Shown here one piece after another: positions 8,889 to 47,586 of a stretch of 64,000 nucleotides of DNA; position 1 is the first letter of the stretch, and each line of letters begins with the position of its first letter. Source of the stretch: Dictyostelium discoideum. Lineage: Eukaryota. The stretch is from positions 1,472,001-1,536,000 of the forward strand of contig CM000150.2 in assembly GCA_000004695.1 (NCBI GenBank), in the 5' to 3' direction. The notes below the pieces were generated by a model that worked only from the letters and a program-made list of their open reading frames with translations, was not told where the DNA came from and searched no databases. The position numbers and the translations under genes are program-made.

Positions 8889-9291
8889 TCTTATTTATTA
8901 TTTATTATTATTATATTATTATATTATTATATTTTAAAATTGGGAGGGGGTGAAAAGGGAATGTTGATTTGAAAAAAAAAAAAAAAAAAAAAAATTTGAA
9001 AAAAAAAAAAAAAAAGGAAAAAAAAAGAAAAAAAAAAATAATATTGTTGTCTGGTTATATATAACCATATAATTTTTTAAAGAAAAAGATTTTATAAATA
9101 ATAAAAAAAAAAAAAAAAAATAGATTATTTCAGTTTACCCAATTTTTTAATATTTTTAATAAAAATTCTATTTATTTTTATTATTATATTTTTTTTTAAA
9201 AAAAGAAATCAGGGTTTTTTATTTTTTTTTATCTTCACAATTTTTTAAATTAATAAAAACAAAAAAATAAAAATAAAAATAAAAATTTTTT

Positions 9292-9344
<53 letters not shown>

Positions 9345-9368
9345 CATTTAAAAAATAATAAATAAAGA

Positions 9369-11750
9369 ATGAATTTTAAAATTATATATTTTATAATTTT
9401 ATCAATAATAGTTTCATATTTTTCAAAGATTGGTATTGATTATTATTTTAGTAGTGATGAAATTAAAGAGAGATATTCATTATTTGAATATGTTGTAAAT
9501 GATCAAATAATAAAATTTGGTAGTAATAGAGATAGAGATCTTTTTGATAGATCACATTATAATGAAGAAGTATTTTATAATATAAAGATATCAAAAGAAG
9601 TTCAAGATGCACTTAGATATGGTAAACCAATCGTATCATTAGAGTCTACAATTATTTCACATGGTATGCCATTCCCACAGAATTATGAAACTGCATTGGA
9701 GGTTGAATCAATCGTTAGATCATATGGTGTTATTCCAGCAACTATTGCAATTTTAAATGGTACAATTCATATTGGATTAACCGAGAAAGAGATTCACTAT
9801 TTAGCAACGGTTGGTAAGGATGCAATTAAAACGTCACGTCGTGACATTGCCATGGTGACATCGATGGGTAAGACAGGATCTACCACGGTTTCAGCAACTA
9901 TTTTATTCTCAAATTTAGTGGGTATCAAAGTGTTTGTCACTGGTGGATTGGGTGGTGTTCATAGGGGTGCCGAAACAAGTTTAGATGTGAGTGCAGATTT
10001 AACAGAGTTGGGTAAGAATGGTGTTATGGTAGTTTCAGCAGGTGTAAAGAGTATATTGGATATTGGAAAGACTTTGGAATATTTAGAGACTCAAGGTGTT
10101 ACAGTGGTGACTTTTGGTTCTGATGAATTCCCAGCATTCTTTACAAAACATTCAGGTGTAAAGACACCAAATCGTTTGGATACCGTTGACCAATGTGCAA
10201 AACTTCTCTACTCAAATCAGTTACTTCAATTAAAGAGTGGCATGGTCGTTGCCGTGCCACCACGTGATAATGAACATTCTGAGCTCATTGACCGTGCAAT
10301 CAAAGAATCAATTGAACAATCAAAAGTAGATGGTATTTTGGGTAAAGATATTACACCCTATCTCTTAAAGAAAGTAAATGAAAAAACTGGTGGTAAATCA
10401 TTAGAATCAAATATTGAATTGGTTAAAAACAATGCTAGAATTGGTTCACAAATTTCTAAACATTATTATAATTTATTAAAAAATAAACAATCACCAACTA
10501 GTAGCACTACTACCATTAAAGGTGATGAATTAGTTTTCAACTATTTTGACCAACGAGTAAATACTTTTCTTAGAAATTATTTTAAAACATTATCAGCAGA
10601 GACTTTGTTATTAAATGGTCCAAATAAATTAAAAGGTTTAAATGGACCAAAACCAAATAAACAATTGGCTGATAATCATATTGAGTATGATATTGTGGTG
10701 GTTGGTGGTGCAGTGATCGATATGATTTCTCATCCATTTAAAGAGAGTGGTTTCCAAATGGAAACTTCAAATCCGGGTGCTATTTCAATTAAAATGGGTG
10801 GCGTTGGTCGTAATGTTGCAGAGGTATTATCAAGATTACAAATGAATTCATTGTTTATTAGTTTGGTTGGTGACGATGTTCACTCTGGTCTATTGATGGA
10901 ATCATTTCAAAAAATGAATTTATCATCCAATGGTGTTGGTATCAAGGTTGGTAGTAAAACTGCAATTTACAATGCAATTATGAATGATCGTGGTGATTTG
11001 GCAGTTGCAATAGCTCAAATGGATATTTTCGATGAGATTACACCTTCCTACATTTCAAAATTTGATTTAACCTCAAGTAAACTTTTAGTTTTCGATGGTA
11101 ATATTCCAATTGAATCAATGACTTATTTAGCTCAACTATCAAGATCAAAAGGTATTAAACTTTGGTTCGAACCAACAAGTGTCTATAAATCTTCAAAAAT
11201 CGTTGAATCATTCATTTTATCTTCAATTACCTATATTTCACCAAATAGAGATGAATTAATTAAAATTTCAAATGAAATTATTAAAAAAGGTTTAATTAAA
11301 TTTGAAAATATTATAAATAATGATATAAATGGTAATTAATTAAAATTTATTTATTTATTTAGATTTATTTATTATATATTTAATTTTTATTAATATTATT
11401 TATTTATTTATTTAGATTTAGAAAATATTAAAAAGCATAGTATAATTTTAATTGAATCTGGTATAAAATATATTATTACAAAGATGGGATCAAAAGGAGT
11501 ATTATTAGCTTATAAAAAAGATGATGGAGAATTTAAATTTGAATTATTTTCAGCACCAGAAGTACCAGATAACAAGATTGTAGATGTAACAGGTGCTGGT
11601 GATAGTTTAGTTGGTTGTACAATTTATTCAATATTACTTGGTCATAATTTAACAACTGCAATCCCCCAATATGGTACCCCTTGTGCAAAAGAAAGTTTAT
11701 TATCAACAAATCCAGTTTCACCAAATATTAAAATTTCTTTATTTAAATAA
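9369..11750 (+). CDS. Bifunctional pseudouridine-5'-phosphate glycosidase (PsuG/IndA-like) fused to a PfkB-family carbohydrate (pseudouridine) kinase
   Basis: Exon 1 is 9369..11331 and exon 2 is 11416..11750, with an 84-bp intron (GTAATT...TTTAG, phase 1). The N-terminal domain reads GKPIVSLESTIISHGMPFPQN...VFVTGGLGGVHRGAETSLDVSADL, the PsuG signature. The C-terminal domain reads DIVVVGGAVIDM...GGVGRNVA...DVTGAGDSLVG, the PfkB kinase signature. The first ~60 aa are hydrophobic and have no homology, so the start is uncertain. Confidence 0.7.
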
Positions 11751-11814
11751 ATATTTATTAAATTTTTTATTATTTTTTTCTTTAAAACATTTTTTAAAAA
11801 ACGTCTAATTGAAC

Positions 11815-11925
11815 TTTACCATTTTTACCACCATAATATGATAAAGAAACACCACCATTGAATTTTTAGTAATTTCACATTAGTCAAAACTATTTGAACA
11901 AGTTTAATCTGAACATTTTAATGAA
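11815..11925 (-). pseudogene. Short fragment of the MRH-domain secreted-protein family (the GVSLSYYGGKNG region)
   Basis: The stretch ccatttttaccaccataatatgataaagaaacacc... matches the central part of the intact paralogue at 13131..13859. It is flanked by unrelated AT-rich sequence. Confidence 0.45.
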
Positions 11926-12029
11926 AAAAAAAAAAAAAAAAAACAAAAAAACAAAAAAACAAAAAAACAAAAAAAAAAAGATCTAATTTAATTTATTAAT
12001 AATTTTAAAATTTTTTATTTATTTATTTA

Positions 12030-12670
12030 AAAAACAAATTCACATTCCAAGTCAATTGAGTTACTTAAAAGTTTTTGAAAATTCTTTCTATGTAAAACTT
12101 AAACCTTTATTATTAATAGTGCATTAATGTTTTGGACTTGTAGGACTTGGTGTTGGAGTTGGTGTTGGTGTTAGTGTTGGAGTTGGTGTTGAATTAATTG
12201 GACAAGCATACATTGAACTCATTGAACATTTATATATTGGAACTAATGAATTAATTCTGATACAGTGATTGGTATTTAAAATAGCTGATGGTTCACAGTA
12301 AAAGTCTAATTTAACTGTACCATTTTTACTACCATTATATGATAAGGAAACACCATTTGAAATTTGAGTAATTTCACTTTTTTCAATATAAGTCATTGGT
12401 AAACAGTTTCATTTTTATAAAAATAAAGGCAACTTTGAACATTGGTTAAATTGTCCGTTTCTTTAAACTATTGCATTTTGGACAATATCCACAAATATTG
12501 AAAAAAAGGAAGAGCATTAATTCTCCATAAGGAATGTCGGAGATTGATCGTGTATAATAATAATCTCCTTTTTTAGTCAATGGTGATAAATCGATTAAAC
12601 CTTGAGCTGTGTTTAATTTACAAACATTATTATTACAATATCCAAATGAAAAATTTAATAAATAACTTAA
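12030..12670 (-). pseudogene. MRH-domain secreted-protein paralogue, copy A. It is degenerate, with a frameshifted N-terminal half and a premature stop.
   Basis: The ORF 12124..12396 encodes only the C-terminal half of the domain plus a TP-linker and then stops. Upstream in another frame lies a signal-peptide/LIDLSPL segment at ~12430-12670. The 3' region at 12030-12124 still matches the C-terminal Cys-module of copy B. Confidence 0.55.
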
Positions 12671-13130
12671 AGTTAAAAAAATAATAATTTATTCATTTTT
12701 TTTATATTTATTGAATGATGAAGAAAAAAAAATTGTATAAATTGATAATTAAAATACTTAAAAATTTATTTAAAAAAAGATTAAATAAAAAATTAATTAA
12801 AATTCTGTTTTTTAAACACTTACTCCAATTGGTTTTTTCGATTGTGATAGTTTTTTTTTTTTTTTTAATTTTGACTAAAAAAGGTAAGGTATTTTTGTGA
12901 ATCATTATTAATATTAAATTATATTACATCTTTGTTTTTGTTCACTTGGGTTTTTTATTGTTTTTGTTTTTTTTTTTTTTTTTTTATTTTTAAAAAATAT
13001 AATAAACATTTATTTACTGATAAAAATTGTTCATAAACACCAAATAAAAGAAAAAAAAAAATACCAAAGTAAACAAAAAAAAAAGATGTAGTATAATTAA
13101 TAAATAATTTTAAATTATTTATTTATTTAT

Positions 13131-13859
13131 TTAAAAAACAAATTCACATTCCACGCCAATTGAATTACATAAAATTTTTTGAGAATTCTTTTTATAATTA
13201 CAAGTAATTGAACTATTTGATGTAAAACTTAAACCTTCATTATTAATAATACATTTATGTTTTAGACCTTCTGGTGTTGGTGTTGAGCTTAAGGTTGGTG
13301 TTGGTGTTGAGCTTAAGGTTGGTGTTGGTGTTGAGGTTGGTGTTGAGGTTGTAGTTGGATTAATTGGACAAGCATGCATTGAATACATTGAACATTGATA
13401 TAATGGAACATATGTATTAATTCTAATACAATCATAGATGTTTAAAGTTTTAGCGGATGGATCGCAGTATATGTCTAATTGAGTTGTACCATTTTTACCA
13501 CCATAATATGATAAAGAAACACCATTTGAAATTTGAGTAATTTCACTTTTATCAGTATAACCCATTGGTGGAGCAGTACCATCTTGTGGATAAAAAGCAC
13601 AACTTTGAGCATTGGTTAAATAGTTGTTACTTCCTAAACTATTACATCTTTGTGTATATCCACAAATATTGAAAAATAGTGAGAATGATTTTGGTGGATA
13701 ATCAATGAATGATCCTGAAAAATAACCACCATTTGGTAAAGTCAATGGTGATAAATCAATTAGACCTTGCTTGGTGTTTAATTTACACACATTATTACTA
13801 TAACCAAATGAAAAATTAAATAAATAACCTATAGTTAAAAAAATAATTATTTTATTCAT
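13131..13859 (-). CDS. Secreted protein with a single MRH (mannose-6-phosphate receptor homology)-like domain, a Thr/Pro/Ser mucin-like linker and a small C-terminal Cys-module. This is the intact reference copy of a tandem family.
   Basis: It encodes 242 aa. There is a signal peptide MNKIIIFLTIGYLFNFSFG. The Cys pattern C..LIDLSPL..Y...Y.F.ICGY..C.....SCAFY...G.....L.YYGG..G....IYCD......C.RI.....Y.C.MYSM.AC matches the MRH-domain consensus. The linker is PTTTSTPTSTPTPTLSSTPTPTLSSTPTP. Confidence 0.55.
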   Translation of the reverse strand: MNKIIIFLTIGYLFNFSFGYSNNVCKLNTKQGLIDLSPLTLPNGGYFSGSFIDYPPKSFSLFFNICGYTQRCNSLGSNNYLTNAQSCAFYPQDGTAPPMGYTDKSEITQISNGVSLSYYGGKNGTTQLDIYCDPSAKTLNIYDCIRINTYVPLYQCSMYSMHACPINPTTTSTPTSTPTPTLSSTPTPTLSSTPTPEGLKHKCIINNEGLSFTSNSSITCNYKKNSQKILCNSIGVECEFVF

Positions 13860-13940
13860 TTTTTTAATATTTATTGGGTGATGAAGAAAAAAAAAGTAAA
13901 GAAAAAAAAAAAGAAAAAAATAAAAGTTTAAAAAAAAAAA

Positions 13941-13964
13941 AAAAAAAAATTTCCCGAGTCACTA
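13941..13964 (-). promoter_or_regulatory. Conserved 24-nt upstream motif (TTTCCCGAGTCACTAGGAAAAAAT) about 85-105 bp 5' of MRH copy B
   Basis: It shares 20 of 24 nt with 15686..15709 upstream of copy D. It is a non-AT-rich island within AT-rich promoter sequence. Confidence 0.35.
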
Positions 13965-14640
13965 GGAAAAAATTAAAAAAAAAGAAAATTATTGTTTTAA
14001 TTTAATTCTTAAGAAAATTTTTTTGAAATTTTTATGGGTGGTGGATATTGGAAAAAAAGGAAAGAAGTGGATGAAAATATATTAAAAAATAAATAGAAAT
14101 AATAAAAAATAAAAAATGAAAAAAAGATTAAATAAACAATTAAAATTCATAAAAAATAAATTAAAAAAGATTAAATAATTAATTAAATAATATAATAATT
14201 AAATATTATTATTATTATTTTTCTCTTTAATTATTTTTTTGTTCACTTGTTATTATTTTCGTGTTTGGTTGTAATTATTTTTGTTTGAGGGGTGATTATC
14301 ATTTTTGTGTTTGGTTAAAATTATTGGAGGGTTATATATATATTTTTTTTTATTTTTTTTATTTTTTTATTTTTTTAAATCACTTTTCAAAAAAATTTAT
14401 TAAAATAAATAGAAATTAATAAAATAATATAAAAAAATTATTAAAAAAGATTTTTTTTTTTTTTTTTCTTTAAATTGATTGTGTTTAATTGGTATTTTTG
14501 ATTGTGAATAGTTTTTTTTTTTTTTTGTTTTAAAAATTATTAAAATAAAAAATAAAAAAAAAATAAAAAAGATAAAATAAAAAAATTAAAATCCAAAAAA
14601 AGATTAAAATAAATATTTAAAATTAAATAATATTTTATTT

Positions 14641-14830
14641 TAATGATTGGTTTAATGATTAATTGGACATTAAGCATACATTGAACATTTATATATACTG
14701 GAACTACTGAATTAATTATAATACAGTCATAGATGTTTAAGCTTTTAGCGGATGAATCACAGTATAGTTACACCAGTATTACCATAATACGATAAGGAAA
14801 CATCATTTGAAAATTTTTGGGTGATAGATA
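14641..14830 (-). pseudogene. Degenerate fragment of an MRH-family paralogue (C-terminal part of the domain)
   Basis: The stretch ...gcatacattgaacatttatatatactggaactactgaattaatt...cacagtatag matches copies B and D but carries indels and has no ORF. Confidence 0.5.
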
Positions 14831-15040
14831 TTGGAAATTTTTCTGACATTTTATTTGAAATGAAACTAATTTTATAAATTAATAGAAAAAAAAAAAAATA
14901 AAAAAGATTAAAAAAAAATTAAAATCCTTTAAAAAATAAAAAAAAAAAAGACTAAATGAATAATTAATTATTTATTATTTTTATTATATTTCTCTTGGTT
15001 GTCATTATTTTGTTTTTAAACGAATGGCTGAGAATTTGGA

Positions 15041-15541
15041 TTAATTGGGGCAAGCATACATTGAATACATTGAACATTTAAATACTGGAACTACTGAATT
15101 AATTCTAATACAGTCATAGATGTTTAAACTTTTAGAGGATGGATCACAGAGTATGTCTAATTGAGTTACACCAGTATTACTACCATAATATGATAAAGAA
15201 ACACCATTTGAAATTTGAGTAATTTCACTTTTATCAGTATAACCCATTGGTGGAGCAGTACCATCTTGTGGATAAAAAGCACAACTTTGAGCATTGGTAA
15301 AAAAGTTGTTACCTCCTAAACTATTACATTTCTTTGCATATCCACAAATATTGAAAAGTAGCGAGAATGATTTTGGTGGATAATCAAAGAATGATCCTGC
15401 ATAGTAACCACCATATGGTAAGGTTAATGGTGATAAATCAATTAAACCTTGAGCTGTGTTCAATTGACAAACATGATTACTATAACCAAATGAAAAATTT
15501 AACAAATAGCTAAAAGTTAAAAAAATAATTATTTTATTCAT
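15041..15541 (-). CDS. Secreted MRH-like-domain protein, a short paralogue of 166 aa with signal peptide plus domain only
   Basis: The ORF is intact. It is ~80% identical to copy B through the domain and ends right after ...YACPN, with no TP-linker or C-terminal module. Confidence 0.5.
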   Translation of the reverse strand: MNKIIIFLTFSYLLNFSFGYSNHVCQLNTAQGLIDLSPLTLPYGGYYAGSFFDYPPKSFSLLFNICGYAKKCNSLGGNNFFTNAQSCAFYPQDGTAPPMGYTDKSEITQISNGVSLSYYGSNTGVTQLDILCDPSSKSLNIYDCIRINSVVPVFKCSMYSMYACPN

Positions 15542-15685
15542 TTTATAATATTTAAAAATGTATTTTTTTTATTGAATAATGAAGAAAAAGAAAAGAATAA
15601 ATAAGAAAAAAAAATAGAAAAAAAAAAAGAAAAAAGAAAAAAAAATAGAAAAAAAAAAATAAAAAAAAAAATAAAAAATATATAT

Positions 15686-15709
15686 TTCCCGATTCCCTAG
15701 GACAAAATC
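15686..15709 (-). promoter_or_regulatory. Conserved upstream motif (TTTCCCGATTCCCTAGGACAAAAT) about 145-170 bp 5' of MRH copy D. It is part of a 13-bp inverted repeat, 15696-15708 against 15770-15782.
   Basis: cctaggacaaaat and attttgtcctagg are separated by ~60 bp of A/T. Confidence 0.35.
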
Positions 15710-16239
15710 AATCAAAATAGAAAGTCAAAAGGAGATTTTTTTTTTTTTTTATTTATTTTATTTTCATTTATTTTGTCCTAGGAAATTGGGTGGTTTGATA
15801 CAATGATTGGAAATTACAAATCAATTTTGTACGATTTTTTTTTTTTTGAAAAGATTTTTTTGTTTTGTTTTTCTGGTAATTTTATTTTTTTTTTTTTTTA
15901 ATTTTTTTTAATTTTTTTTAATTTTTTTTTTTAATATTTGTGAGGACTTTTGGAAATTGAAAAGTAAAAAAAGGTGTTTTGGGTTGGTAAAAAAAATAAA
16001 AAAAAAATAAAAAAAATAATGTTGCCCCAGGCAAACCCAAAACACTTTTTTTTTGACACCTAAATTTTTATTATTCACAAATTTTGGAATTTCTAATATT
16101 TTATTATTTTATTAAAAAAAATAAAAAAAAAGAGAAAAAATAAATAAAATTGAATTCAAAATTGAAAATGTTGTAGCCGAACTTGGATTAGGAGGAGTTG
16201 TGGGAACTAAAGTTTGACAGTAAACTTCAAATTGGTCAA

Positions 16240-17057
16240 TCATGAATCCAGTACTATTAAAACATTCCAATTTAATATTTTCAAAAGCATTTGAACAAGT
16301 TTTATCTGTAAATAAAAACAGTTGAATTTCAAAAGTATTTTGAAATCTGTTGGTAAAATTGAAATTCTTTCAAAATCACAAAGATTCATACAATTTCCTA
16401 CTGTTACATTATAACCACTTGTTGGGCATAGATTACCAAAAAATTTGAAACTATTATAAATAATATTTGAAGGATTTGAGGTTGGATTTGGAGAAGGGGT
16501 AAAAGTTTGAGTTTGAGTTTGAGTTGGAGTAGTAGAAGGGGTAATAGTTGGAGAAGAAGTAGGTGAGATAATTGGACAAGCATACATTGAAATCATTGAG
16601 CATCTATATAAAGGAACTACTCTATTTATTCTAATACAATCATAGATGTTCAATGATGTGGCGTGGGTCACAATAAATTTTAAATTGAGCTGTACCATTT
16701 TTACCACCATAATATGATAATGAAACACCGTTTTTAATTTCAAACAGTTCACTTTTGTCAATATAACCCATTGGTGGAGCAGTGTCATCATTTTGATAAA
16801 ATGCACAACTTTCTGCGTTGGTGTTTTTAGTATTATTACCTAAGGAATTACATCTCGTTGCATATCCACAAATATTGAAAAGTAGTGAGAATGATTTTGG
16901 TGGATAATCAAAGAATGATCCAGCATAATAACCACCATTTGGTAGAGTCAATGGTGATAAATCAATCAATCCACCAATGTTTGCAAACATTATTATCATA
17001 CCCAAAAGAATTATTTACAAAGTAAAAAAATGTAATAATAATAAATAATTTAAACAT
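16240..17057 (-). pseudogene. MRH-family paralogue, copy E, carrying at least two frameshifts
   Basis: The signal-peptide ATG is at 17057 (MFKLFIIITFFYFVNNSFGYDNNVCK). The first frameshift is a ~7-nt deletion near 16985 in the CKLNT.QGLIDLSPL region. The second frameshift is near 16680, which splits the domain between ORFs 16640..17005 and 16240..16806. The TP/TQ linker and C-terminal module are present in the second frame. Confidence 0.6.
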
Positions 17058-17511
17058 TTGATTTAATATAGCTTTTTTTTTACTAATTATTATTATTTAA
17101 AACACTTTCAAATAAAAATAAATAAATAAAAAAAAAAGATTAAATATTTTTTTATGTATTTCAAAAAAAAAAAAAAAATGGTTATAAAAAAAAAAAACCA
17201 AAACAAAAAAAGTCTTTTCTAAAGATTTTGTATCGCCATTGCTATTGGTGATTTTTTTTTTAAAAATTTTATTTTTAATTATTTTTTTTTTATTTTTTTT
17301 TTATTTTAATGGACAGGCAATCGACCAAACTGGAGTTTAATAAAAAAAAATATAAAAAGTTTGTGGTAACTTTTTGGAATTAAAGCAAATTGTGGCAGCA
17401 TAGTAAAAGTGGAAAGAAAAAAAAAAAAATTAAAGCTGGAAAAAAAAAAAAAGAAGAAAAAGATAATTTTATTTTTTATAGTTTTTTTTTTTTTTTTTTT
17501 TTACTTTAAAC

Positions 17512-19326
17512 TTATAATATATTAATATTATGATCTTTTAAATGAGTTTGAATGATTAAATCAGAATTCTCTAAAAATCTATTATTTGAATAGATTACTT
17601 TTGGTTGATAATAAACTTCACGACCAAATTGTTTCTTACAAAAGATTTCACCATGTTGATTCTTTAAAAACATTTGAGTTGTATCAGGATTTTCAAGAAA
17701 AGTATCATGAACTACAGTACAAGTGTTTATGAAATTCTCTTCATTTGTTGTTGAAACACCACCAGATACAGCCATACTAGTTAGAGAATCATATGATAAG
17801 AAATGAAATCCATTCGATGGTGAAATGGTTGTACTGTGTAATATTGTTGGTGGTGAAGGTCTATTGTCAAACGATTGCTCTAAATCTTTTGATAGTTGTA
17901 ATATACGATTATTATGATTCAATCTAATCTTATTAAATTCTAAATGAATTGTAAATTGTGTATTTGGATTTATATCTGTTAATAATGCAATAGTTAAATC
18001 TGTCCAATAAATTATTAATAATTTAACTGCAATATATTCTGTTTCATTCTTTTTATCATTATTATTATTATTATTATTATCATTATCATTGTTATTATTA
18101 TTGTTATAATTATTATAATTATTATAACTATTATTTGATTGATGATGATGATGATGATGATGTTGTTGTACATTATTTATATTAAAAACATTATTTTGAT
18201 TTTGATTTATATCAGTATTAATATGTTTATTTTTTAAATTTGTATATTCCTGTGGTGATATATAAACAGTTTGATGATAATCTTCAGGAATGTAAAGTGG
18301 TGGTGCATTACCATTTGAATTATTTGAATTGTTTAAATTTGAACCACCAGAATTTAAACCACCAATATTTGAAGAACTATCTTTACCTAAACCAGAGGAT
18401 GAACTTGACATGTTCAATGGTGATTGTAATGGTGATTGTGGTTGTGATGATTGTTGTTGTAATATTAATGGATTAGTTGCATTCTTTCTACTATATTCAA
18501 TTTTATCCAATATGAATTTAGTTGTAGTTTTCAATTCGAAATTACTATATAATACTGTATTTCTAAAGAATATTGCACCTCCTAAATGATCATTTTGTGA
18601 TATACTATCAATTAAATGTGATGCTTGTATAAAAAATCTTTGTGATCTCTAATAATAATAATAGTATTAGTATTATACACCATATGTATATTATACATAA
18701 TAATAATAATATTTACATTTGGTAATGGTGTATATGGTAATGGATTAAAAGGATTCATTATATTTTTATATATATTGTTTGTTACAATTTGCATTAATTC
18801 ATTTAATTCGAATTCGAGTTTCTTTTTTTCTTTCTTTTAAAATTTTGATATTAAAAAAAAAAAAAAAAAAGTATTACGATTAGTATATACGTATATGTTT
18901 TTAAAATTATAAATTATATATACTTACAGAAATTGTACCTAAAGTTTTATAAAAAAAAGTTAAAGCTTTATAAATATGATTTAAATGATTTGAAACTGTT
19001 GATGGTGCAATATCGATATCAGTGCATAATACCATTGTATAACGATCAACTAATTTTAATGATAGGACATGTCTTTCTAATGTGATATAATCGATTGGTG
19101 ATGAAGTGAAGAAATCACCACTAATACCTGACATTGAATGAATACCACCACCAAAATTAACTTTCATCATATTATTAACATGAGGAATATCTGGATAAAA
19201 GTAAATTAATTTCTCATTTTGATCTGCACTCTCATCATTTTCAAATTCTTCATAAATGCAAAATAATATTTCATCACTCTTTAAAAAATGTAATGGTGTT
19301 AATGGTGTTTCGCTGTAATGTGCCAT
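17512..19326 (-). CDS. Hypothetical protein with a longin-like N-terminal region (tentatively CCZ1/Mon1/HPS-type), a His run and poly-N
   Basis: Exon 1 is complement(18928..19326), MAHYSETPLTPLHFLKSDEILFCIYEEF...KLIYFYPDIPHV...KTLGTIS, ending at a GTAAGT donor. The 279-bp intron is 18649..18927. Exon 2 is complement(17512..18648), RSQRFFIQASHLIDSISQNDHLGGAIFFRNTVLYSNFELKTTTKF... The ILFYHP-like KLIYFYPD motif suggests a CCZ1-type longin domain, but the family call is weak. Confidence 0.45.
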
Positions 19327-22430: not shown

Positions 22431-34056
<11,626 letters not shown>

Positions 34057-34457
34057 AAAATAAAAAAAATAAAATTTAAAAATTAAAGGATTTAGTAAGA
34101 TGATTGAGTTTTTTTTTTGAAATAATTATTATTTTGGTTGGATAATAGTTGCTTCTCTTTTATATACTTTTTTTTTTAATATTGATTATTCAGTGTTTAT
34201 CCATTATAGGAAATAAACAATTATATATATTATTTAATATCTGGATTTTAAAATGTAAAATAGTTTTAATTTTTAAATAACATATAAAACGAAAAATCAG
34301 TTTTCATTTTTAAATCACATATAAAAACATATTATCAATTTATGTATTCAGAATATTATAACCAATATATTTAATTTACATGTTTTGGTTTTTTTTTTTT
34401 TTTTTTTTTTTTTTATTTTTATTATGGAATGTAAAAAAATTGTTGGGAATCGAACCT

Positions 34458-35960
34458 TTTTTTTTTTTTTTTGATATAAATAAACTATTGTAGTATACAA
34501 TTAGTATGTTATTTTTATTTATTTATTTTAGGTTTTTTAATTTTTGTGAATTTAAAATGGTATGTTATTTTAGATTAGGTAATTAATAATTAATTGGTGG
34601 TGTAATTGTTGGAATTGGTTCATTAGTGTTTATGCTCCATTCTTTTTTAAATTTTTTGATTGTTTCGGACCATTGGGTTTCTTTTTGAGTTTTTGTGAGG
34701 TTGTTTTTAATTGAGTATTGGTTAAAGTTTGATAATGTTCTTGAATATTCCAATCTTTTTAGCTTGTGCCATTTTGATTTTAATATATCATAATCTAATG
34801 TTGTGTTGTTTATTTGGTTGTTCCAATTATCAATTGATTGAGTTATATTGATGTCAAATAATGATTTGCATAACCATATCCATATTTGGTGAATAACTAA
34901 TGAGATTATGTTCCAATATGCATGTGTTTTGACTAGATCAAGATTTGTGTTTATATAATTCCAGTTGAACCTGTATTTTTTATATTGTGCATTTTTTGCA
35001 AAATGAAAATTAATATTGATAGTTGGATCTGGTTTAAATGCTTTGTTGTTTATTTGTGGTTTATAAATGAGTGTGTATAATTTTGTTGTTTGGTTTTTTG
35101 TTAGTGACCAGTTTTTGTTTCCATTGCAATTTTTATATATAAAATATTTTAATTTGTCGTGGTTTATGAAGTTGATTGTGTGCTGACAATTGAAAAACAA
35201 ATGACCATAGGGGTCATTATTCATTTCATTTTTGCAAATGGGGCCAACTTTGTTGTGTAGATGATTAATTTGCATTGTATCACGGCCTTTTGGATCTTTT
35301 AATTTTTGAATTTTGACAAATAGTTGGTGGTATGTGTATTTCCATAATAGTTGTATTGATTGTTGGTGCGAAGTAAGAAGTAGATCTGAATATTTCTTGC
35401 CACCTCCGCCCATATTAAATTTAATATGGACACCACATAGTCTTTTGATTTGCATTGGTGATTGTTGAGTATTGTAGAGTAGATTTCTTTGAGTGTTGGT
35501 GGTAGTGAAATATTATTTGTGATTAATGTTTGAGAGGTTTGGTTTTTTATTAATATTGGTTGTAGGGTTTGAACTTTATCTTTTAGATGTCCAATTTGAG
35601 TTGCATAGTTTTCCCATTCTTTTTTAATTTTTATAAGGTATGGAGAAGAGATTGATTTGTTGATTATTTGATCCATCCAACTTATCATGTATATTGAATT
35701 GTTTGCAGATTTATGCATTTGTAAAAATCTGTTGTATATCCAAATCTTTTGAGCAACTTGTCGTAATTGTATATTCCAAAATACCCCAACCACCTTCTTT
35801 TAATGGTTTTAATGATCTATCATAACACATCAAAGGTATTTTTTCACGTGAATGGATGGTTAATGTGTTGTTTTCAATGGAATTGGTATTGAGAGAATTC
35901 ATAAACCATGAGATTAATTTATTAATTTGAATTTCTTCATCTTTTGTAAATTCTTCAAGT
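34458..35960 (-). mobile_element. 5'-truncated non-LTR (TRE3-type, tRNA-gene-targeted) retrotransposon fragment. It carries the ORF2 C-terminal Cys-rich region, the 3' UTR and the poly(A) tail.
   Basis: Minus-strand ORFs in three frames (35711..35902, 35299..35793, 34583..35455) encode a retroelement ORF2 C-terminus with a CKNEMNNDPYGHLFFNCQH cysteine motif. The overlap across frames shows frameshift decay. The 3' UTR is 34474-34582, and T16 at 34458-34473 is the poly(A) on the minus strand. The element lies ~80 bp downstream of the tRNA-Trp at 36042..36128, in the same orientation. It is flanked by the 17-bp direct repeat ttgttgggaatcgaacc (34441-34457 and 35994-36010). Confidence 0.6.
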
Positions 35961-35998
35961 TAGAAATCAAAATAATGTTAAATTGAATAAATTTGTTG

Positions 35999-36009
35999 GG
36001 AATCGAACC
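35999..36009 (-). promoter_or_regulatory. ex-B box (downstream B-box-like GGTTCGATTCC) ~33 bp 3' of the tRNA-Trp gene
   Basis: The minus strand reads ...TCAAAGGTTCGATTCCCAACAA. Dictyostelium tRNA genes commonly carry an external B box in the 3' flank. Confidence 0.5.
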
Positions 36010-36041
36010 TTTGATTTTAGAAAGTCTCTTAAAAAAATGAC

Positions 36042-36128
36042 AGACCCCTCAGGGAGTTGAACCCTGGACCAACTGCTAACTTCTAACGTTTTGGAGACAA
36101 TTACAATAAACCACTATGCTAAGGAGTC
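36042..36128 (-). tRNA. trnW-CCA: tRNA-Trp (anticodon CCA) with a 13-nt intron
   Basis: The reverse complement is GACTCCTTAGCATAGTGGTTTATTGTAATTGTCTCCAAAACGTTAGAAGTTAGCAGTTGGTCCAGGGTTCAACTCCCTGAGGGGTCT. The acceptor pairs GACTCCT with AGGGGTC, with one G-U. The D-loop is AGTGG. The anticodon stem pairs ATTGT with GCAGT, and the loop is C-U-CCA-A-[intron AACGTTAGAAGTT = plus 36078..36090]-A. The T-arm is CAGGG-TTCAACT-CCCTG. The discriminator is T, followed by a T7 terminator. Confidence 0.75.
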
Positions 36129-36400
36129 TTTGAAAATTCACTGGATGAAACACTTTGTTAACACCTCATTTTTTTCGGTGAAACACTATGTTATGGAGTC
36201 ATTAATTTTTATGTCAATAACATGCTGGAATTTAGCTGGCGAAAATTAAAATTGAAAACCAATTGGATGACTCACTTTCCTAAGCCCTCATTTTTTTGGG
36301 TGAAACACTATGTTAAGAAGTCATTACTTTTTATGTCAATAATATGCTGAAATTAAGCTGGCAAATATTAATATTATACCTAGTTATAATAATTACAAAA
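36129..36400 (-). repeat. About 2.3 tandem copies of a ~117-bp module immediately upstream of tRNA-Trp. Each module is the 5'-flank plus a degenerate copy of the first ~20 nt of the tRNA.
   Basis: Repeating blocks (plus strand) read gtgaaacactatgtta(t/a)g(g/a)agtcatta.tttttatgtcaataa(c/t)atgctg(g/a)aatt(t/a)agctggc(g/a)aaa(a/t)attaa.attgaaaaccaattggatga.(a/t)cactttg.taa(c/g).cctcatttttttgg. The subsequence acactatgtta.ggagtc mimics the tRNA 5' end ccactatgctaaggagtc. Confidence 0.55.
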
Positions 36401-38298: not shown

Positions 38299-39350
38299 CA
38301 AGAAAAACAAGAAAAGTAGCATGAACAACAACCACAGCAACATGTAAATTAAAAAATAGCAAAACAAAATATTAGTAACTTTTTATAATATTAAAATGAA
38401 TAAAATCTGAATGTATGGTTTGAAATCTTATTTATATAAACTCTCAAGTAAATTTTTTAAAAAAAAAATACCAGAAAGGCAGAGGAAAACGAATAAAACT
38501 TTGGAGGTTAGGTTTTTTTTTTTTAAATATAAAATCAGAAGTAATTGTGATGGTAAAGATAATAAATCATTTGTTCAAAATATTCACATTATTAAGTTTT
38601 ATTTGATCTATTAAAACTATTTATCATTAATATTTTATTAAGCAATAATTATAAAAAAACAATCTTTTTTGATTTAAATATAGGTGAGAATTCTCATTTT
38701 ATCAAGTGGTTTTATATATGTTTTTTTATAAGATTAAATAATTAAATAATAAAATTATGAAATTAATTTTTTTTTTTTTTTTTTTTTTCAGCACATTGAC
38801 CCACGAAGGCTGAGTTTGAACAACAGAGGTCTTTTAAATTTTAATCTTGTTGGATTTTTTTTTTTTTTTAATATTGAATAATAAGTGTTTATCCATTAAA
38901 GCAAATAAACAATAACTAATAGTTTTAGTTATTCATTTTCTTTAATTTTAATATTCAAATAAGGAATTTTAATAGTGTAGTAACTAATTTTTATTATTAT
39001 TATTATTAATATTGTTATCTTTTTTTAAAATATCGAGTTTTTAGATATGTTAAATATTAAATAAATTAATTTAATAAATCAAATAATATGATTATAATTG
39101 ATTAGATGAAATGGTATGATTTGGAAGAATCAGTTGATTCTTGCAAGTTAATTATCTTAATAATAGTATTTGTTTAAGGAAATCGTTTGGGTCTTTAAAA
39201 TTGTTCTGATCTTTTGAAAGAGTTAATTTACATGTTTTTTTTTTTTTTTTTATATATAAATATATATTCTGGAAATCAAATTAATGTTAAATTGAATAAA
39301 TTTGTTGGGAATCGAACCTTTGATTTTAGAAAGTTTCTTAAAAAAATGAC

Positions 39351-39437
39351 AGACCCCTCAGGGAGTTGAACCCTGGACCAACTGCTAACTTCTAACGTTT
39401 TGGAGACAATTACAATAAACCACTATGCTAAGGAGTC
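39351..39437 (-). tRNA. trnW-CCA: tRNA-Trp (CCA), second copy, identical 87-nt gene with a 13-nt intron (39387..39399)
   Basis: It is identical in sequence to 36042..36128. It has the same 3' flank TGTCATTTTTTTAAGA(G/A)ACTTTCTAAAATCAAAGGTTCGATTCCCAACAAATTTATTCAATTTAACATTA. The ex-B box is at 39308..39318. Confidence 0.75.
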
Positions 39438-39904
39438 CTTGAAAAATCAATTGGATGAAACACTTTGCTAAGGCCTCAATTTTATTGGAAAACCCAAATT
39501 AATCAGAAAATTTCCAGATTTTTAACTTTTTAAAGTAAAATAAAAAATAGAAAGAAAATAAGATGAAAATTACAAACAACACCACAAATATTAAGCAACA
39601 CAAATGCCTACAAAAAATAAGCGAAATTGTGGATAAAACTCAAATAAAAAAAACAATTCAAATATGTCATCAACATCAATCACGAACCAGACGATAAAAT
39701 AAAAAAAGATTTAGAAAAAGTTTGGACAAAAAAGATGTTTAATCAAAAGTAATAATACAATTCAAAATTTGAAACAAAAAAAAAAAAAAAAAAAAAAAAA
39801 AAGTTAACTAACCCCTCTTTTAGAGACCCTGTAAAAAACTACAAATAAAATGAGATCAAGCAGGAGAAGCAACTAATAATTGCGTTATCCAATTCAAAAA
39901 AAAA

Positions 39905-43878: not shown

Positions 43879-44297
43879 ATGGTACTTAAGTTTTAAAAAG
43901 AAAATGAAAATTAAAAAAAAAAAAAAAAAAAAATTAAAAAAAATAATAAAAAAAATAAAAAAAAAAATAATAAAAATAAAAATAAAAATAAAACAAAAAT
44001 GGAAAATAAAAAAACTAAAAAATTATTCTTTTTTTAGTTGTGTAAAAAAAAAAAAAAATAAATACTTACTTTTTAGTTAACAATTTTAATTTATTCTTTG
44101 AAAAAAATAAAATTTCTTATTTTTTTCTCTTTTTTTTCTATGAAACCATAAAATAAATAAAGGAGAAAATTAATTCTTATACTTCAATTTACTTAAAAAG
44201 AAAAAAATAAAATAAAATACCTATTTTTAATTAATTATTTTTATTTATTAATTTAGTTTAAATTAATTTAATTAATTTAATTAATTTAATTTATTAT

Positions 44298-44343
<46 letters not shown>

Positions 44344-44723
44344 ATTAGTGGAATCTTTAATTAATTAAACACATTTTGTTGAAGAAGGAAAAAAAAAAAA
44401 AGTTAATCTTTTTATTTTTTTTAATTTTTTTTTTTTTTTTTTTTTTTTTACAATTTTTTTTTTTTTTTTTTTTTTTTTCATTTATTTTTACACAGAAGTG
44501 GTTGTTTAAATTATTTGAAGTTTTATATTTATATTTTTGATGGAATATCACAATAATTATACAAGTAAAAAAAATAAAAAGAAATAAGAAAAAAACCAAA
44601 CATCGATTAAACATTTTGTTTTGTTTTATTTTTTTAATTTTTTGTTTTTTCTAAAAAAAAAAAAAAAATAAAAAATAAAAAAAAAATAAAAAAAATTTCA
44701 ATCTACCATAAAAATAAAACAAA

Positions 44724-47586
44724 ATGAATAAAAAGGTATTTTTAAATAACTATTTAAATGAAAGAAAACAATTGAATGGTAATGAAATCAACAATAACAA
44801 CAATAACAACAACAATAACAATTACAACAATAATAACAATAATAATAATCTAAATAAGGATAAGGATAAAGATAAAGATAAAGAAAGAGATAAAGATAGA
44901 GAAAGAATTAAAGAAAGAACTAAAGAAAGAGGTGACAAAGAAAGAGATAGAGATAAAGAAAGAGACAGAGAGAGAAAGAAAGAAAAAGTTGAAAAACCTC
45001 AAGTTGCCGTCTTAAAACAAAGTGCTCAACATGTTAAACAACAAAGATTAAAAGAAAAAGAAAAAGGTAAAGAAAAGGAAAAAGATAAAGAAAAAGATAA
45101 GGAAAAAGATAAAGAAAGAGAAAGAGAAAAAGAAAAAGAAAAAGAAAAGGTAAAAGATAGAGAAAAAGAAAAAGAAAAAGAAAAAGAAAAAGAAAAAGAA
45201 AAGGTAAAAGATAGAGAAAAGGTAAAAGATAGAGAAAAGGAAAAAGAAAAAGAAAAAGAAAGAGACAAGCTCAAACCAAAAGATTCCAAAATTAAAGAAA
45301 GAGATATTGAAAAGGAAAAAGTAAGAGATAGAGAAAAAGAAAGAGAAAAAATTAGAGATAGAGAAAAAGATAAAAATAGTAACAATAATATTATTAAACC
45401 AAAAGAAAAAAAAGATGAAAGTATTGCAAAAACTCAAAAAAATATAACAATTAAAGAAAATGGCAATATAACCAGTAGTAGTAGTATTAGTAATAGTAGT
45501 AGTATTAATAATAATAATAATAATAAAATAATAAATAAGAGTGTTAGTACCAATGGTAATGGTAATAGTAGTAATAGTACAAATAATAATAACAGTAATG
45601 GTAGTAATGGTGTAGATATAAAAAAGAAACCAATTCTTGACTCAAAGAAAAGGGCATTACCATCATCATCATCAAAATCTCAAACTACATCAACTTCAAC
45701 TTCAACCTCAACTTCAAAATTATCAAAACCAATTGTGAAAAAGAAAAAAGATTCAAATTTAAAAAGGATTAAACTTTCAAATGGTGGTGTAGTTACAAAA
45801 TATAAGAGAAAGAAATCAAATAATGATAGTGGTAGCGATGATAGTAGTTATGATAGTAGTGATGATAGTAGCGGTAATGATAGTAGTAGTAGTGGTAGTA
45901 GCAGTAGTAGTGGTAGTGATGACAGCGATAATAGTAGTGATGATGATAGTGATAGCAGTGATGGCGATAGTAGTAGTGATAACGATGATGACAATGACAA
46001 AAATAGTAGTGGAAGTGATGATGACGAAGATGGTGATTCTAGTAGTTTCGATAGTAATTATAGTGGTTCATATGATAGTTTTAGTGACAGTAGCGAATGT
46101 GACGATAGTGATTGTTCATGTGGAAAAAAAAGAAAAAATAAACCCGATAGTAGTAATAGTAAATTAACAAATTTAAAAAAACCAATAACCAATGGTAACA
46201 CCACCGATAATTTAGACAATGGTTTAACAACATCATCAATAGTAGTTGACGATCAACAAAAAATTACAAATGAATATATTGAAAAACATTTAAATTCTGG
46301 TAAAGCGAACCCTGACTATTCTGATATTGCTGTCTTAATTCAAAAATCAAGAAATAAGAAATTTGGTTTCATTTCAAGAAGTAAGTATCATTCAATTTAT
46401 TAATAATATAAAATATATATTAATTAACTTTTTTTTATTATTCAGACTTTTTTATAGAAAGAACAGAGAAAATATTATACGAAATTGATGATATTGATAT
46501 TTGTAATTGTTCAAAAAGTAGTGGATCAGTTTGCGGTGATGATTGTTTAAATAGAGAATCATATGTAGAATGTAATATTGAACATTGTGAATTAGGTAAA
46601 AAATGTACGAATCAAAGATTTCAAAGAAAACAATATTCAAATATTAAACCTGCATTTGTAAGTCATATAATATAATTTTTTTTTTTTTTTTTTTAATAAT
46701 AACATATTAATGTTTATTTTTATTTTTTTATTTTTTTTTTATTTTTTTTTTATTCTAGACAGGTAAAAAAGGATGGGGATTAATTGCAAATGAAGACATT
46801 GAAGAAAAACAATTTATAATGGAATATTGTGGTGAAGTAATTAGTAAACAAACTTGTTTGAGAAGGATGAAAGAGGCAGAGAATGAAAAGTTTTTTTATT
46901 TCCTTACATTAGATTCAAAGGAATGTTTGGATGCAAGTAAGAGGGGTAATTTAGCAAGATTTATGAATCATAGTTGTGATCCAAATTGTGAAACCCAAAA
47001 ATGGACGGTTGGTGGTGAAGTAAAGATTGGAATTTTCGCAATTAAACCAATACCAAAAGGTACTGAATTAACATTTGATTATAATTATGAAAGATTTGGT
47101 GCACAGAAACAAGAATGTTATTGTGGTTCTGTAAATTGTCGTGGTTATTTAGGTCAGAAATCAAAATCATCCACTTCTACAACTCGTCCAAAACAAATCA
47201 CTCGTTGGAAGAATTCAATAGTTTTAAATCATAATCATCATGTTAAATATTTTTTAGGTGAACCAATCATTCCACATTCAAACCCTTCCTCCTCCTCTTC
47301 CTCTAGATCAGTATCAACTCTTTATAATAGTGAATTATCACCAGAGATGGAATTACAATTAATTAATTCAAAAAGAATATTCCTACATAGAAATGTTAGA
47401 AAATTGAAATCTTTTTATTTTAATGTTTTTAATTATTATAGTAGCGGTGGTGGTAGTGGTGGTAATAATAAAAAGTTAATTAATATAACTTCAACTTCAA
47501 CTTCAAATTCATCTTTAAATTCATCTTTAAATTCAAATATAAAATTAAAAAGAAAAAATAAAATTAGTGATATCTTCAATATTTGA
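44724..47586 (+). CDS. SET-domain histone-lysine N-methyltransferase, SET2/ASH1 type (AWS-SET-postSET), with a long K/E/D/R-rich and Ser/Asp-rich N-terminal region
   Basis: Exons are 44724..46380 (GTAAGT donor, phase 1), 46446..46657 (AWS: ...DICNCSKSSGSVCGDDCLNRESYVECNIEHCELGKKCTNQRF...; GTAAGT donor) and 46759..47586 (SET: TGKKGWGLIANEDIEEKQFIMEYCGEVI...NLARFMNHSCDPNCETQKW...GTELTFDYNYERFG; post-SET: QECYCGSVNCRGYLG). Introns are 65 bp and 101 bp. Confidence 0.75.

Follow-up and report, generated by a model that had tools for sequence, protein, structure and literature searches.

A 5.3-kb locus in the window, the 64-kb stretch of Dictyostelium discoideum (strain AX4) DNA analysed here, carries a tandem gene family whose products, judging from structural modelling, really do use the mannose-6-phosphate-receptor homology (MRH) fold. 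We regard it as reasonably probable (about 0.6) that the family is syntenic, restricted to Dictyostelium and made up of extracellular MRH barrels, rebuilt at the sugar site so as to recognize a ligand other than mannose, and encoded at a birth-and-death locus. Each gene would encode a signal peptide and one CIMR-type MRH β-barrel (P-type lectin fold). Optional modules may follow: a Thr/Pro mucin-like stalk, its length altered by repeat slippage; either four Cys in a short tail or a 6-Cys module spanning ∼90 aa; and, in certain copies, a C-terminus resembling a GPI-attachment signal, so that both soluble secreted and surface-tethered forms would exist.

When the window was searched with tblastn, all matches to the 242-aa product and its relatives fell between positions 11797 and 17057, on the minus strand only. 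They form six segments, two intact, two frameshifted and two fragmentary, which are tandem paralogues at one locus:

16112..17057, minus strand: copy A, pseudogene (tblastn, three frames; 3′ limit about 16112)
15041..15541, minus strand: copy B, intact, DDB_G0268122, 166 aa (ORF)
14658..14860, minus strand: fragment, decayed remains of an MRH-domain 3′ half in changing frames (tblastn E 1e-7 to 1e-9)
13131..13859, minus strand: copy C, intact, DDB_G0268434, 242 aa (ORF)
12030..12695, minus strand: copy D, older copy-C-type pseudogene (tblastn, three frames)
11797..11925, minus strand: fragment, short chimeric remnant (tblastn E 2e-5)

The sequence-only reading had proposed two intact genes, two pseudogenes and two fragments on this strand, and tblastn and nucleotide alignment confirmed it. 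Its coordinates were correct for both intact genes but slightly short for the pseudogenes: copy D runs from an ATG at 12695, not 12670, and copy A continues to about 16112, not 16240, taking in another Cys-rich module plus a hydrophobic tail. In the remnant at 11797..11925, reading by eye shows a copy-A-tail-like piece and, after it, the domain stretch SEITxISNGVSLSYYGGKNG..QLD. The fragment at 14658..14860 has a counterpart in D. cf. discoideum, likewise lying between copies B and C (L002, 12451-12579).

Copy A is 97.6% identical in nucleotide sequence to an intact 334-aa orthologue in another D. discoideum strain (L001). Relative to this orthologue it carries frameshifting deletions of 7+1, 2 and 1 bp, as well as an in-frame deletion of 87 bp in the linker. 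The ancestral copy A comprised a signal peptide, the MRH domain, a Thr/Pro linker, the ∼90-aa 6-Cys module and a GPI-signal-like hydrophobic tail. On this comparison, copy A is a pseudogene inactivated recently in the AX4 lineage, whereas the other D. discoideum strain still has it alive. Sequencing errors in AX4 were considered as the source of its frameshifts and rejected, because an independent D. discoideum assembly (KAM99441xx proteins) contains the same 118-aa copy-A ORF fragment and the same downstream fragment. Copy D is 84.5% identical to copy C and has several frameshifting indels, one of them a 26-bp deletion, together with in-frame stops that can be read directly from the sequence. 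It corresponds to dictyBase DDB_G0268120_ps, while gene order suggests that copy A is DDB_G0268124_ps; both are listed as pseudogenes under the dictyBase names that Kin et al. 2018 give. The 90-aa model XP_647562 and the old model DDB_G0268436 are ORF fragments inside copies D and A, respectively, and the AX4 GenBank/RefSeq entries for DDB_G0268120 and DDB_G0268436 should be corrected accordingly. The fold label turned out not to be new, since both intact products already carry the name ‘MRH domain-containing protein’ in UniRef; the dead copies are flagged in dictyBase. No main-text naming of the array genes was found in the literature searched.

Copy C is organized as follows (signal peptides and GPI signals were assigned by eye throughout):

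13859-13803, minus strand: signal peptide
13802-13362, minus strand: MRH domain
13361-13275, minus strand: Thr/Pro linker, holding a perfect 24-bp x 2.7 tandem repeat
13274-13134, minus strand: 4-Cys tail
13133-13131, minus strand: stop

The signal-peptide-like N-terminus, Thr/Pro linker and Cys-rich tail are thus present as first described. Copy B consists of a signal peptide and a bare MRH domain. Compared with copy C, it has a 1-bp insertion (read by eye) right behind the final Cys-Pro, so that a TAA stop follows at once. The copy-B protein is 100% identical to P0004, and the 166-aa form is kept in two other genomes as well (P0005 and P0006), three in all. The earlier description of the family as single-MRH-domain proteins holds in that each has one such domain; it does not cover the C-terminal modules, which differ among paralogues and in some end in a GPI-signal-like tail. 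Neither intact AX4 gene has such a tail. Copy-A orthologues, read unspliced, end in NPNSATMTPFSILNSISFSFFFFFFLK or a similar GPI-signal-like sequence before the stop, and D. citrinum copies end in NSATTIPFSIWNSVLFIFFYFLLLKIF and NSATSIPLSILNSILCIFFLLFFLKI. A C-terminal SSATT/NSAT stretch plus hydrophobic tail is conserved in three species.

The superfamily concerned is the MRH/P-type lectin fold, Pfam clan M6PR (CIMR, Man-6-P_recep, PRKCSH, ATG27). An AF2 model (pLDDT 89, pTM 0.85) predicted a flattened β-barrel of two antiparallel sheets with an N-terminal hairpin in front, and a Foldseek search with this model matched CD-MPR (E 5e-8), which upholds the fold first assigned from cysteine spacing. 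Since 17 of the 26 sequences in the AF2 input alignment were canonical CIMR-type repeats, the local loop geometry of the model may lean to the canonical form. The Pfam search suggested for the 242-aa product returned nothing: neither AX4 protein matched a Pfam model at E≤10. A profile built from the array alone matched only CI-MPR in the PDB, short of significance (E 0.059). The match to curated models is instead transitive. The family profile detected dictyostelid multi-repeat MRH proteins (E 1.5e-37), and hhalign joined the array-only and multi-repeat-only profiles with 99.4% probability (E 6.7e-22). The multi-repeat profile in turn detected CI-MPR (E 1.5e-80), and the multi-repeat proteins exceed the Pfam cut-offs for CIMR (42 bits versus 22.5) and ATG27.

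These multi-repeat proteins are the nearest sequence relatives of the array. Polysphondylium violaceum CYY_005925 and CYY_007853 have four repeats each and the metagenomic protein P0012 has seven, the range being two to seven tandem repeats per chain. They share with the array the framework DLSPL...ICG...QSC...CD...YACP but, unlike the array, match Pfam CIMR and ATG27 directly and keep the Gln, Arg, Tyr and canonical loop-C disulfide in many repeats. The same derived MRH sub-type occurs in one Tieghemostelium lacteum protein, DLAC_09134 (P0015). It has the derived IYDC...FEC...YACP Cys pattern and lacks the Gln, Arg and Glu of the sugar-binding tetrad; a Ser-rich stalk and then a hydrophobic C-terminus follow its MRH domain, although EGF-like modules, absent from the array, lie between stalk and anchor.

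The tetrad positions were set with hmmalign in eight family domains, anchored on CI-MPR domains 3 and 5 (Q348/R391/E416/Y421 in domain 3, and equivalents). In all eight, Gln is replaced by A/T, Arg by G/F and Glu by T/S/K/N/A, while the Tyr position is Y/F/H and is the only one of the four to stay aromatic; none of the domains has the sugar-binding tetrad. MAFFT shifts the Glu position by one residue, but the residue found there is still non-acidic. Loop C, which bears the Arg, is shortened and has lost its Cys, and the partner Cys before the Tyr is likewise absent; an N-glycosylation sequon (NGT) lies in the loop. Six of the eight Cys align to CIMR-type positions (C6, C47, C53, C68, C113 and C145 in domain numbering), while C125 and C137 are new and invariant. 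The new pair is a candidate disulfide that appears to replace that of loop C. Across 16 domains from five genomes, the eight Cys and the motifs GLIDLSPLTLP, SFSLLFNICG, NGVSLSYYG and IYDCIRIN are invariant or nearly so. Per-site entropy is highest at position 131, beside the Glu position, and at 61-62 and 103-104. The family varies most in its former binding loops.

With three of the four sugar-binding residues lost, the array proteins are probably not conventional lectins, and the glycan-binding role proposed at the outset is not supported by this comparison. That they are genuine secreted P-type lectins, binding mannose-type glycans through the usual or a slightly altered MRH pocket, is unlikely in our judgement. 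Candidate ligands would be mannans of bacteria or cell surfaces, or else the methyl-phosphomannose or high-mannose glycans carried by Dictyostelium lysosomal enzymes. The confirmed fold and the aromatic residue at the Tyr position agree with such a role, as do the tetrad residues kept by the multi-repeat relatives. So do the Gln of QSC, two residues before a conserved Cys, kept in most members (E in the copy-A type), and the mild induction of DDB_G0268434 on Klebsiella (log2FC 0.81, adj. P 1.2e-6). Against it stand the replacements in every member, the deletion of the Arg-bearing loop C together with its Cys, and the variability of the region equivalent to Glu, the most variable site of the family. 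In characterized MRH domains (CI-MPR, OS-9, GII-β), loss of tetrad residues accompanies loss of sugar binding. A different sugar specificity is compatible with the loss of three canonical residues. In the preferred reading, with the mannose-holding residues gone, loop C short and its disulfide exchanged for a new Cys pair, the barrel would serve as a module that binds neither mannose nor Man-6-P but some other ligand, perhaps a protein or another glycan, with specificity residing in the variable loops. A parallel would be found in the non-sugar-binding domains of CI-MPR, among them domain 11, whose ligand is IGF2.

To our knowledge, all well-studied MRH proteins work within the secretory/endolysosomal pathway. 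The array proteins might by analogy be intracellular factors like OS-9, GII-β, GNPTG or Atg27, acting in ER quality control, lysosomal sorting or autophagy, and one of ten family members does match Pfam ATG27 weakly (E 0.0047). We consider this very improbable. The C-termini are ECEFVF, YACPN or a GPI-signal-like tail, not an HDEL/KDEL-type sequence, and the proteins lack a membrane-spanning segment with a sorting tail in the cytosol. Further, lineage restriction, copy-number variation and fast evolution would be unusual for core trafficking factors. Stalks of the Thr/Pro mucin type are a usual feature of surface and secreted glycoproteins in Dictyostelium; secretion, GPI anchoring and O-glycosylation of the array proteins are suggested. 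The closest known systems differ from the array in several ways. The CI-MPR-type receptor has 15 domains, a transmembrane segment and a cytosolic sorting tail, whereas each array protein has one domain and neither of the latter features, would be secreted or GPI-anchored on a Thr/Pro stalk, has the new Cys pair in place of the loop-C disulfide, and occurs in a few Dictyostelium species only. CD-MPR, a type I membrane protein, has a sorting tail and keeps the Gln/Arg/Glu/Tyr site intact, both of which are lacking in the array. The MRH domains of OS-9/Yos9/XTP3-B, glucosidase II β and GNPTG are structurally further from the array than CIMR repeats are; these proteins reside in the ER/Golgi, conserve the mannose-binding residues and are encoded by universally conserved single-copy genes, while the array is a variable tandem family.

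D. discoideum, D. cf. discoideum, D. citrinum and D. firmibasis are the only species in which full-length members were found. The syntenic loci L001-L004, with the same flanking genes throughout, contain 3, 3 plus one fragment, 5 and 3 copies. Both L001 and L002 have an intact copy A, and copy D occurs only in AX4, being missing from the three-copy locus L001. Orthologue dS is 0.07-0.30 and paralogue dS 0.18-0.55; orthologues are thus recognizable, with no concerted homogenization. Tandem paralogues, dead copies, and differences between genomes in copy number and in intact or dead status bear out the birth-and-death history first proposed. The locus would turn over by tandem duplication, module loss and frameshift decay, with copy-number differences between species and even strains. 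Rapid evolution, also claimed initially, is evident from dN/dS values of 0.29-0.78 for the array, whereas the neighbouring Indigoidine_A/PfkB gene has 0.06-0.11 at a comparable dS.

A dispensable, decaying family, in which intact ORFs are merely young duplicates not yet disabled and have no specific ligand, seems to us a little less plausible even than the lectin role. Two of the four full-length AX4 copies and both fragments are dead, copy A having died recently, and copy B has a dN/dS of 0.78 between AX4 and L001. Expression is low and does not exceed about 15 TPM: about 4-11 TPM for the array in vegetative cells, with 4-5 TPM for copy B, and about 0 TPM for copy D. A search of a life-cycle proteome supplement did not find the array proteins. 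However, dN/dS was below 1 in 11 of 11 array comparisons (mostly 0.3-0.5), orthologous copies A, B and C are intact across three divergent genomes with Cys and long motifs near-invariant, and the 166-aa form is preserved. The relative in T. lacteum further indicates that the sub-family is old. A dN/dS below 1 with half of the AX4 copies dead would also fit a weak, dispensable function.

Nearly all MRH domains known so far are intracellular lectins of sorting and quality control. A lineage-restricted extracellular MRH family without the mannose-binding residues and with a rewired disulfide would show that the fold can be recruited to other ligands, although this has no bearing on a long-standing open question. 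A more speculative extension, to which we give little weight, is that the barrel was re-purposed as a polymorphic extracellular recognition module, with soluble and GPI-anchored forms, hypervariable loops where sugar was once bound, and presence/absence polymorphism among strains, as copy A would exemplify. If so, possible roles would include strain or self recognition, cell adhesion and discrimination of bacterial prey, and the family would form a new functional class of MRH proteins beyond the known secretory-pathway roles. The gene set is small and tractable, with two intact copies in AX4 and three in other strains.

Gene models outside AX4 also need attention. The 328-aa D. firmibasis model is a fusion of two genes, and a spurious terminal intron costs the 334-aa and 332-aa models a probable GPI signal. 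In one assembly, a gene model (P0041) joins copy B by splicing to the fragment at 14658..14860.

The array proteins are best read as a variant of an already known fold family: Dictyostelium-specific, predicted to be secreted or GPI-anchored, and carrying putative MRH-fold (P-type lectin fold) binding modules in which the former sugar site has been remodelled and is variable. A tblastn search of the window (G+C ~22%), using the 242-aa product plus three of its relatives as queries, gave matches confined to positions 11797-17057, all on the minus strand. Both intact genes, the two pseudogenes and the two fragments described in the sequence-only reading were recovered. The array and its flanks are arranged as follows:

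9369-11750, plus strand: Indigoidine_A/PfkB fusion gene, flanking the array
11925..11797, minus strand: short fragment (tblastn)
12695..12030, minus strand: copy D, sharing 84.5% identity with copy C and carrying numerous frameshifting indels
13859..13131, minus strand: copy C, intact ORF of 242 aa
about 14860..14658, minus strand: short fragment (tblastn)
15541..15041, minus strand: copy B, intact ORF of 166 aa
17057..about 16112, minus strand: copy A, tblastn match spread over three frames
17512-18534, minus strand: hps4 orthologue, the array's other flank

The 242-aa ORF of copy C matches D. discoideum AX4 XP_647563 (DDB_G0268434) exactly. Copy A shares 97.6% nucleotide identity with an intact 334-aa orthologue in another D. 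discoideum strain (locus L001), relative to which deletions of 7+1, 2 and 1 bp shift its frame and its linker is shortened in-frame by 87 bp. In-frame stops were read directly from the sequence of copy D. The possibility that the AX4 frameshifts are sequencing errors was rejected: a second, independent assembly shows the same copy A ORF fragment and the same fragment downstream of copy B, and the lesions are therefore real. According to Kin et al. 2018 (PMC6198379), dictyBase already has pseudogene entries for DDB_G0268120_ps and DDB_G0268124_ps; gene order points to the latter being copy A. Two AX4 GenBank/RefSeq protein models, DDB_G0268120 (90 aa) and DDB_G0268436 (118 aa), represent no more than ORF fragments within copies D and A, respectively. 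Since automatic annotation already exists, the suggestion that the family was undescribed in this organism is weakened. In another D. discoideum assembly, a 196-aa model (P0041, KAM9944143.1) joins copy B by splicing to the decayed fragment (window 14658-15541), probably an annotation artefact.

The fold was not apparent from direct searches. The Pfam comparison proposed with the initial MRH assignment gave no match at E<=10 for either AX4 protein, and phmmer found no match for the 242-aa protein among PDB sequences. A full-length profile of 10 sequences matched PDB entries (DotF and glucoamylase) through the low-complexity linker only. An AF2 model based on a shallow alignment of ten close relatives had a pLDDT of 37.7 and was discarded; a confident model was obtained only after domain slices from distant dictyostelid relatives joined the alignment. 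With the family profile as query, an exhaustive HMMER search detected distant dictyostelid proteins in which the domain is repeated in tandem 2-7 times (E 1.5e-37 to 5.7e-8), a Tieghemostelium protein combining the domain with EGF modules, and a MACPF protein of Heterostelium that also bears it. Pfam ATG27 was matched above the cut-off by two of the multi-repeat proteins; P0012, with seven repeats, also exceeded that for CIMR, and P0016, with four, only just reached PRKCSH_1. Aligned by hhalign, the array-only and multi-repeat-only profiles matched with 99.4% probability (E 6.7e-22, 139 columns). The multi-repeat profile in turn matched CI-MPR with E 1.5e-80; CI-MPR was also the sole PDB match of the array-only profile, at an E of just 0.059. 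The MRH fold call is borne out, the profile chain running from the array through the multi-repeat proteins to CI-MPR. In the Heterostelium album protein (P0027, PPL_07800, 644 aa), a MACPF (perforin-like) domain precedes a single CIMR-type MRH domain in which Arg and Tyr of the mannose-ligating tetrad are retained; the protein is pore-forming, with a candidate glycan-targeting module.

The tetrad positions were set on the chain sequence of CI-MPR domain 3, and all domains were then aligned to one HMM. Relative to the literature numbering Q348/R391/E416/Y421, the Gln, Arg, Glu and Tyr of the chain are uniformly offset by +2. In this alignment, the Gln position was A/T in all eight family domains, the Arg position G/F and the Glu position T/S/K/N/A, with Y/F/H at the Tyr position, whereas Gln, Arg and Tyr are retained in many repeats of the multi-repeat relatives. 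The Arg-bearing loop is shorter in the family (...GGKNGTT...) and lacks its Cys, as well as the partner Cys preceding Tyr; two extra invariant Cys occur in IYDC and YQC. Among 16 domains from five genomes, the core motifs were invariant, and variability peaked at position 131 (adjoining the Glu position), 61-62 and 103-104 (adjoining the Arg position). Such a sequence pattern is what an MRH barrel would show after abandoning the canonical mannose pocket. That the proteins act as lectins of the canonical kind, as proposed, is unlikely, since Gln, Arg and Glu are replaced in all eight family domains.

The N-terminus (MNKIIIFLTIGYLFNFSFG/YS...) resembles a signal peptide, as judged by eye, and the modules following the MRH domain are optional and differ among copies. 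A perfect 24-bp x 2.7 tandem repeat (window 13272-13335) lies in the Thr/Pro linker of copy C, and linker length differs between strains (products of 242, 250 and 248 aa). Copies C and D have a 47-aa tail with 4 Cys, and copy A a 6-Cys module of about 90 aa. Homology searches detected no relatives of either module: the sole match to the copy A tail was the AX4 pseudogene fragment itself, and BLASTP against the T. lacteum relative gave no significant match. Copy-A-type genes, like some genes of D. citrinum, encode a conserved small-residue site and then a hydrophobic C-terminus, as is typical of GPI signals. Copy B was cut short by a 1-bp insertion directly after the final Cys-Pro, as read from the sequence; its 166-aa form is retained in three genomes. 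The models at L001:10001-11106 (334 aa) and L002:10001-11082 (332 aa) carry a terminal intron. Unspliced, both ORFs run on into the conserved GPI-signal-like tail, and the intron probably arose as an artefact of gene prediction.

Synteny of the locus extends to four other genomes:

L001, D. discoideum (second strain): three copies, all intact (334, 166 and 250 aa)
L002, D. cf. discoideum: three intact copies and one fragment
L003, D. citrinum: five copies of the domain, of which one is apparently interrupted
L004, D. firmibasis: three copies, all intact

Compared with these loci, copy D and the 11.8-kb fragment are specific to AX4. The pseudogenes, the fragments and a copy number varying among the four loci support well the birth-and-death evolution initially proposed. 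Nei-Gojobori dN/dS over the signal peptide and domain was 0.29-0.78 for orthologues and 0.37-0.55 for paralogues. Since the neighbouring Indigoidine_A/PfkB gene gave 0.06-0.11 at similar dS, against 0.29-0.78 for the array, constraint is relaxed or partly diversifying, not absent. Across window positions 9001-19000, the L001 assembly (GCA_054859385.1) is just 85-95% identical to AX4, with a dS of about 0.08 even in the housekeeping neighbour, a high divergence within one named species. In D. firmibasis, the 328-aa 'transmembrane protein' model RB653_007554 (P0002; L004:10001-11392, GCA_036169595.1) wrongly joins two neighbouring family genes: the first of the two ORFs ends in ...YACPI* and, after an AT-rich spacer of about 300 bp, the second starts with MKQIVVFLVMIAILFNETFG.... 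A true two-domain form was rejected, the second copy having its own ATG and signal peptide.

Transcript levels come from Kin et al. 2018 (PMC6198379, supplement 2). DDB_G0268434 showed TPM values of 0.5-0.9 in cup, 5-14.5 in stalk, 0.5-2.6 in spore and 10-11 in vegetative cells; those of DDB_G0268122 were about 0, 0.1-1.2, 0-1.3 and 4-5, respectively, and those of the array pseudogenes near zero. In the Parikh 2010 series, which supplement 5 of that paper tabulates again, DDB_G0268122 ranged from about 5 to 21 units between 0 and 24 h. DDB_G0268434 was 1.75-fold up on Klebsiella relative to axenic medium (adjusted P 1.2e-6; PMC7078664). A life-cycle proteome supplement has an entry for neither product, and a search by gene and UniProt identifiers found, within the literature library covered, no paper with these genes in its main text.

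Elsewhere in the window lie two tRNA-Trp(CCA) genes on the minus strand, 3.3 kb apart (36041-36129 and 39350-39438); their length of 89 nt each suggests that they contain an intron. The segment 52001-54000 has a G+C of 0.33, an AT skew of 0.50 and a GC skew of -0.39, and GC skew exceeds 0.3 at 34001-36000 and 44001-46000; these skews probably stem from strand-biased simple-sequence coding regions.
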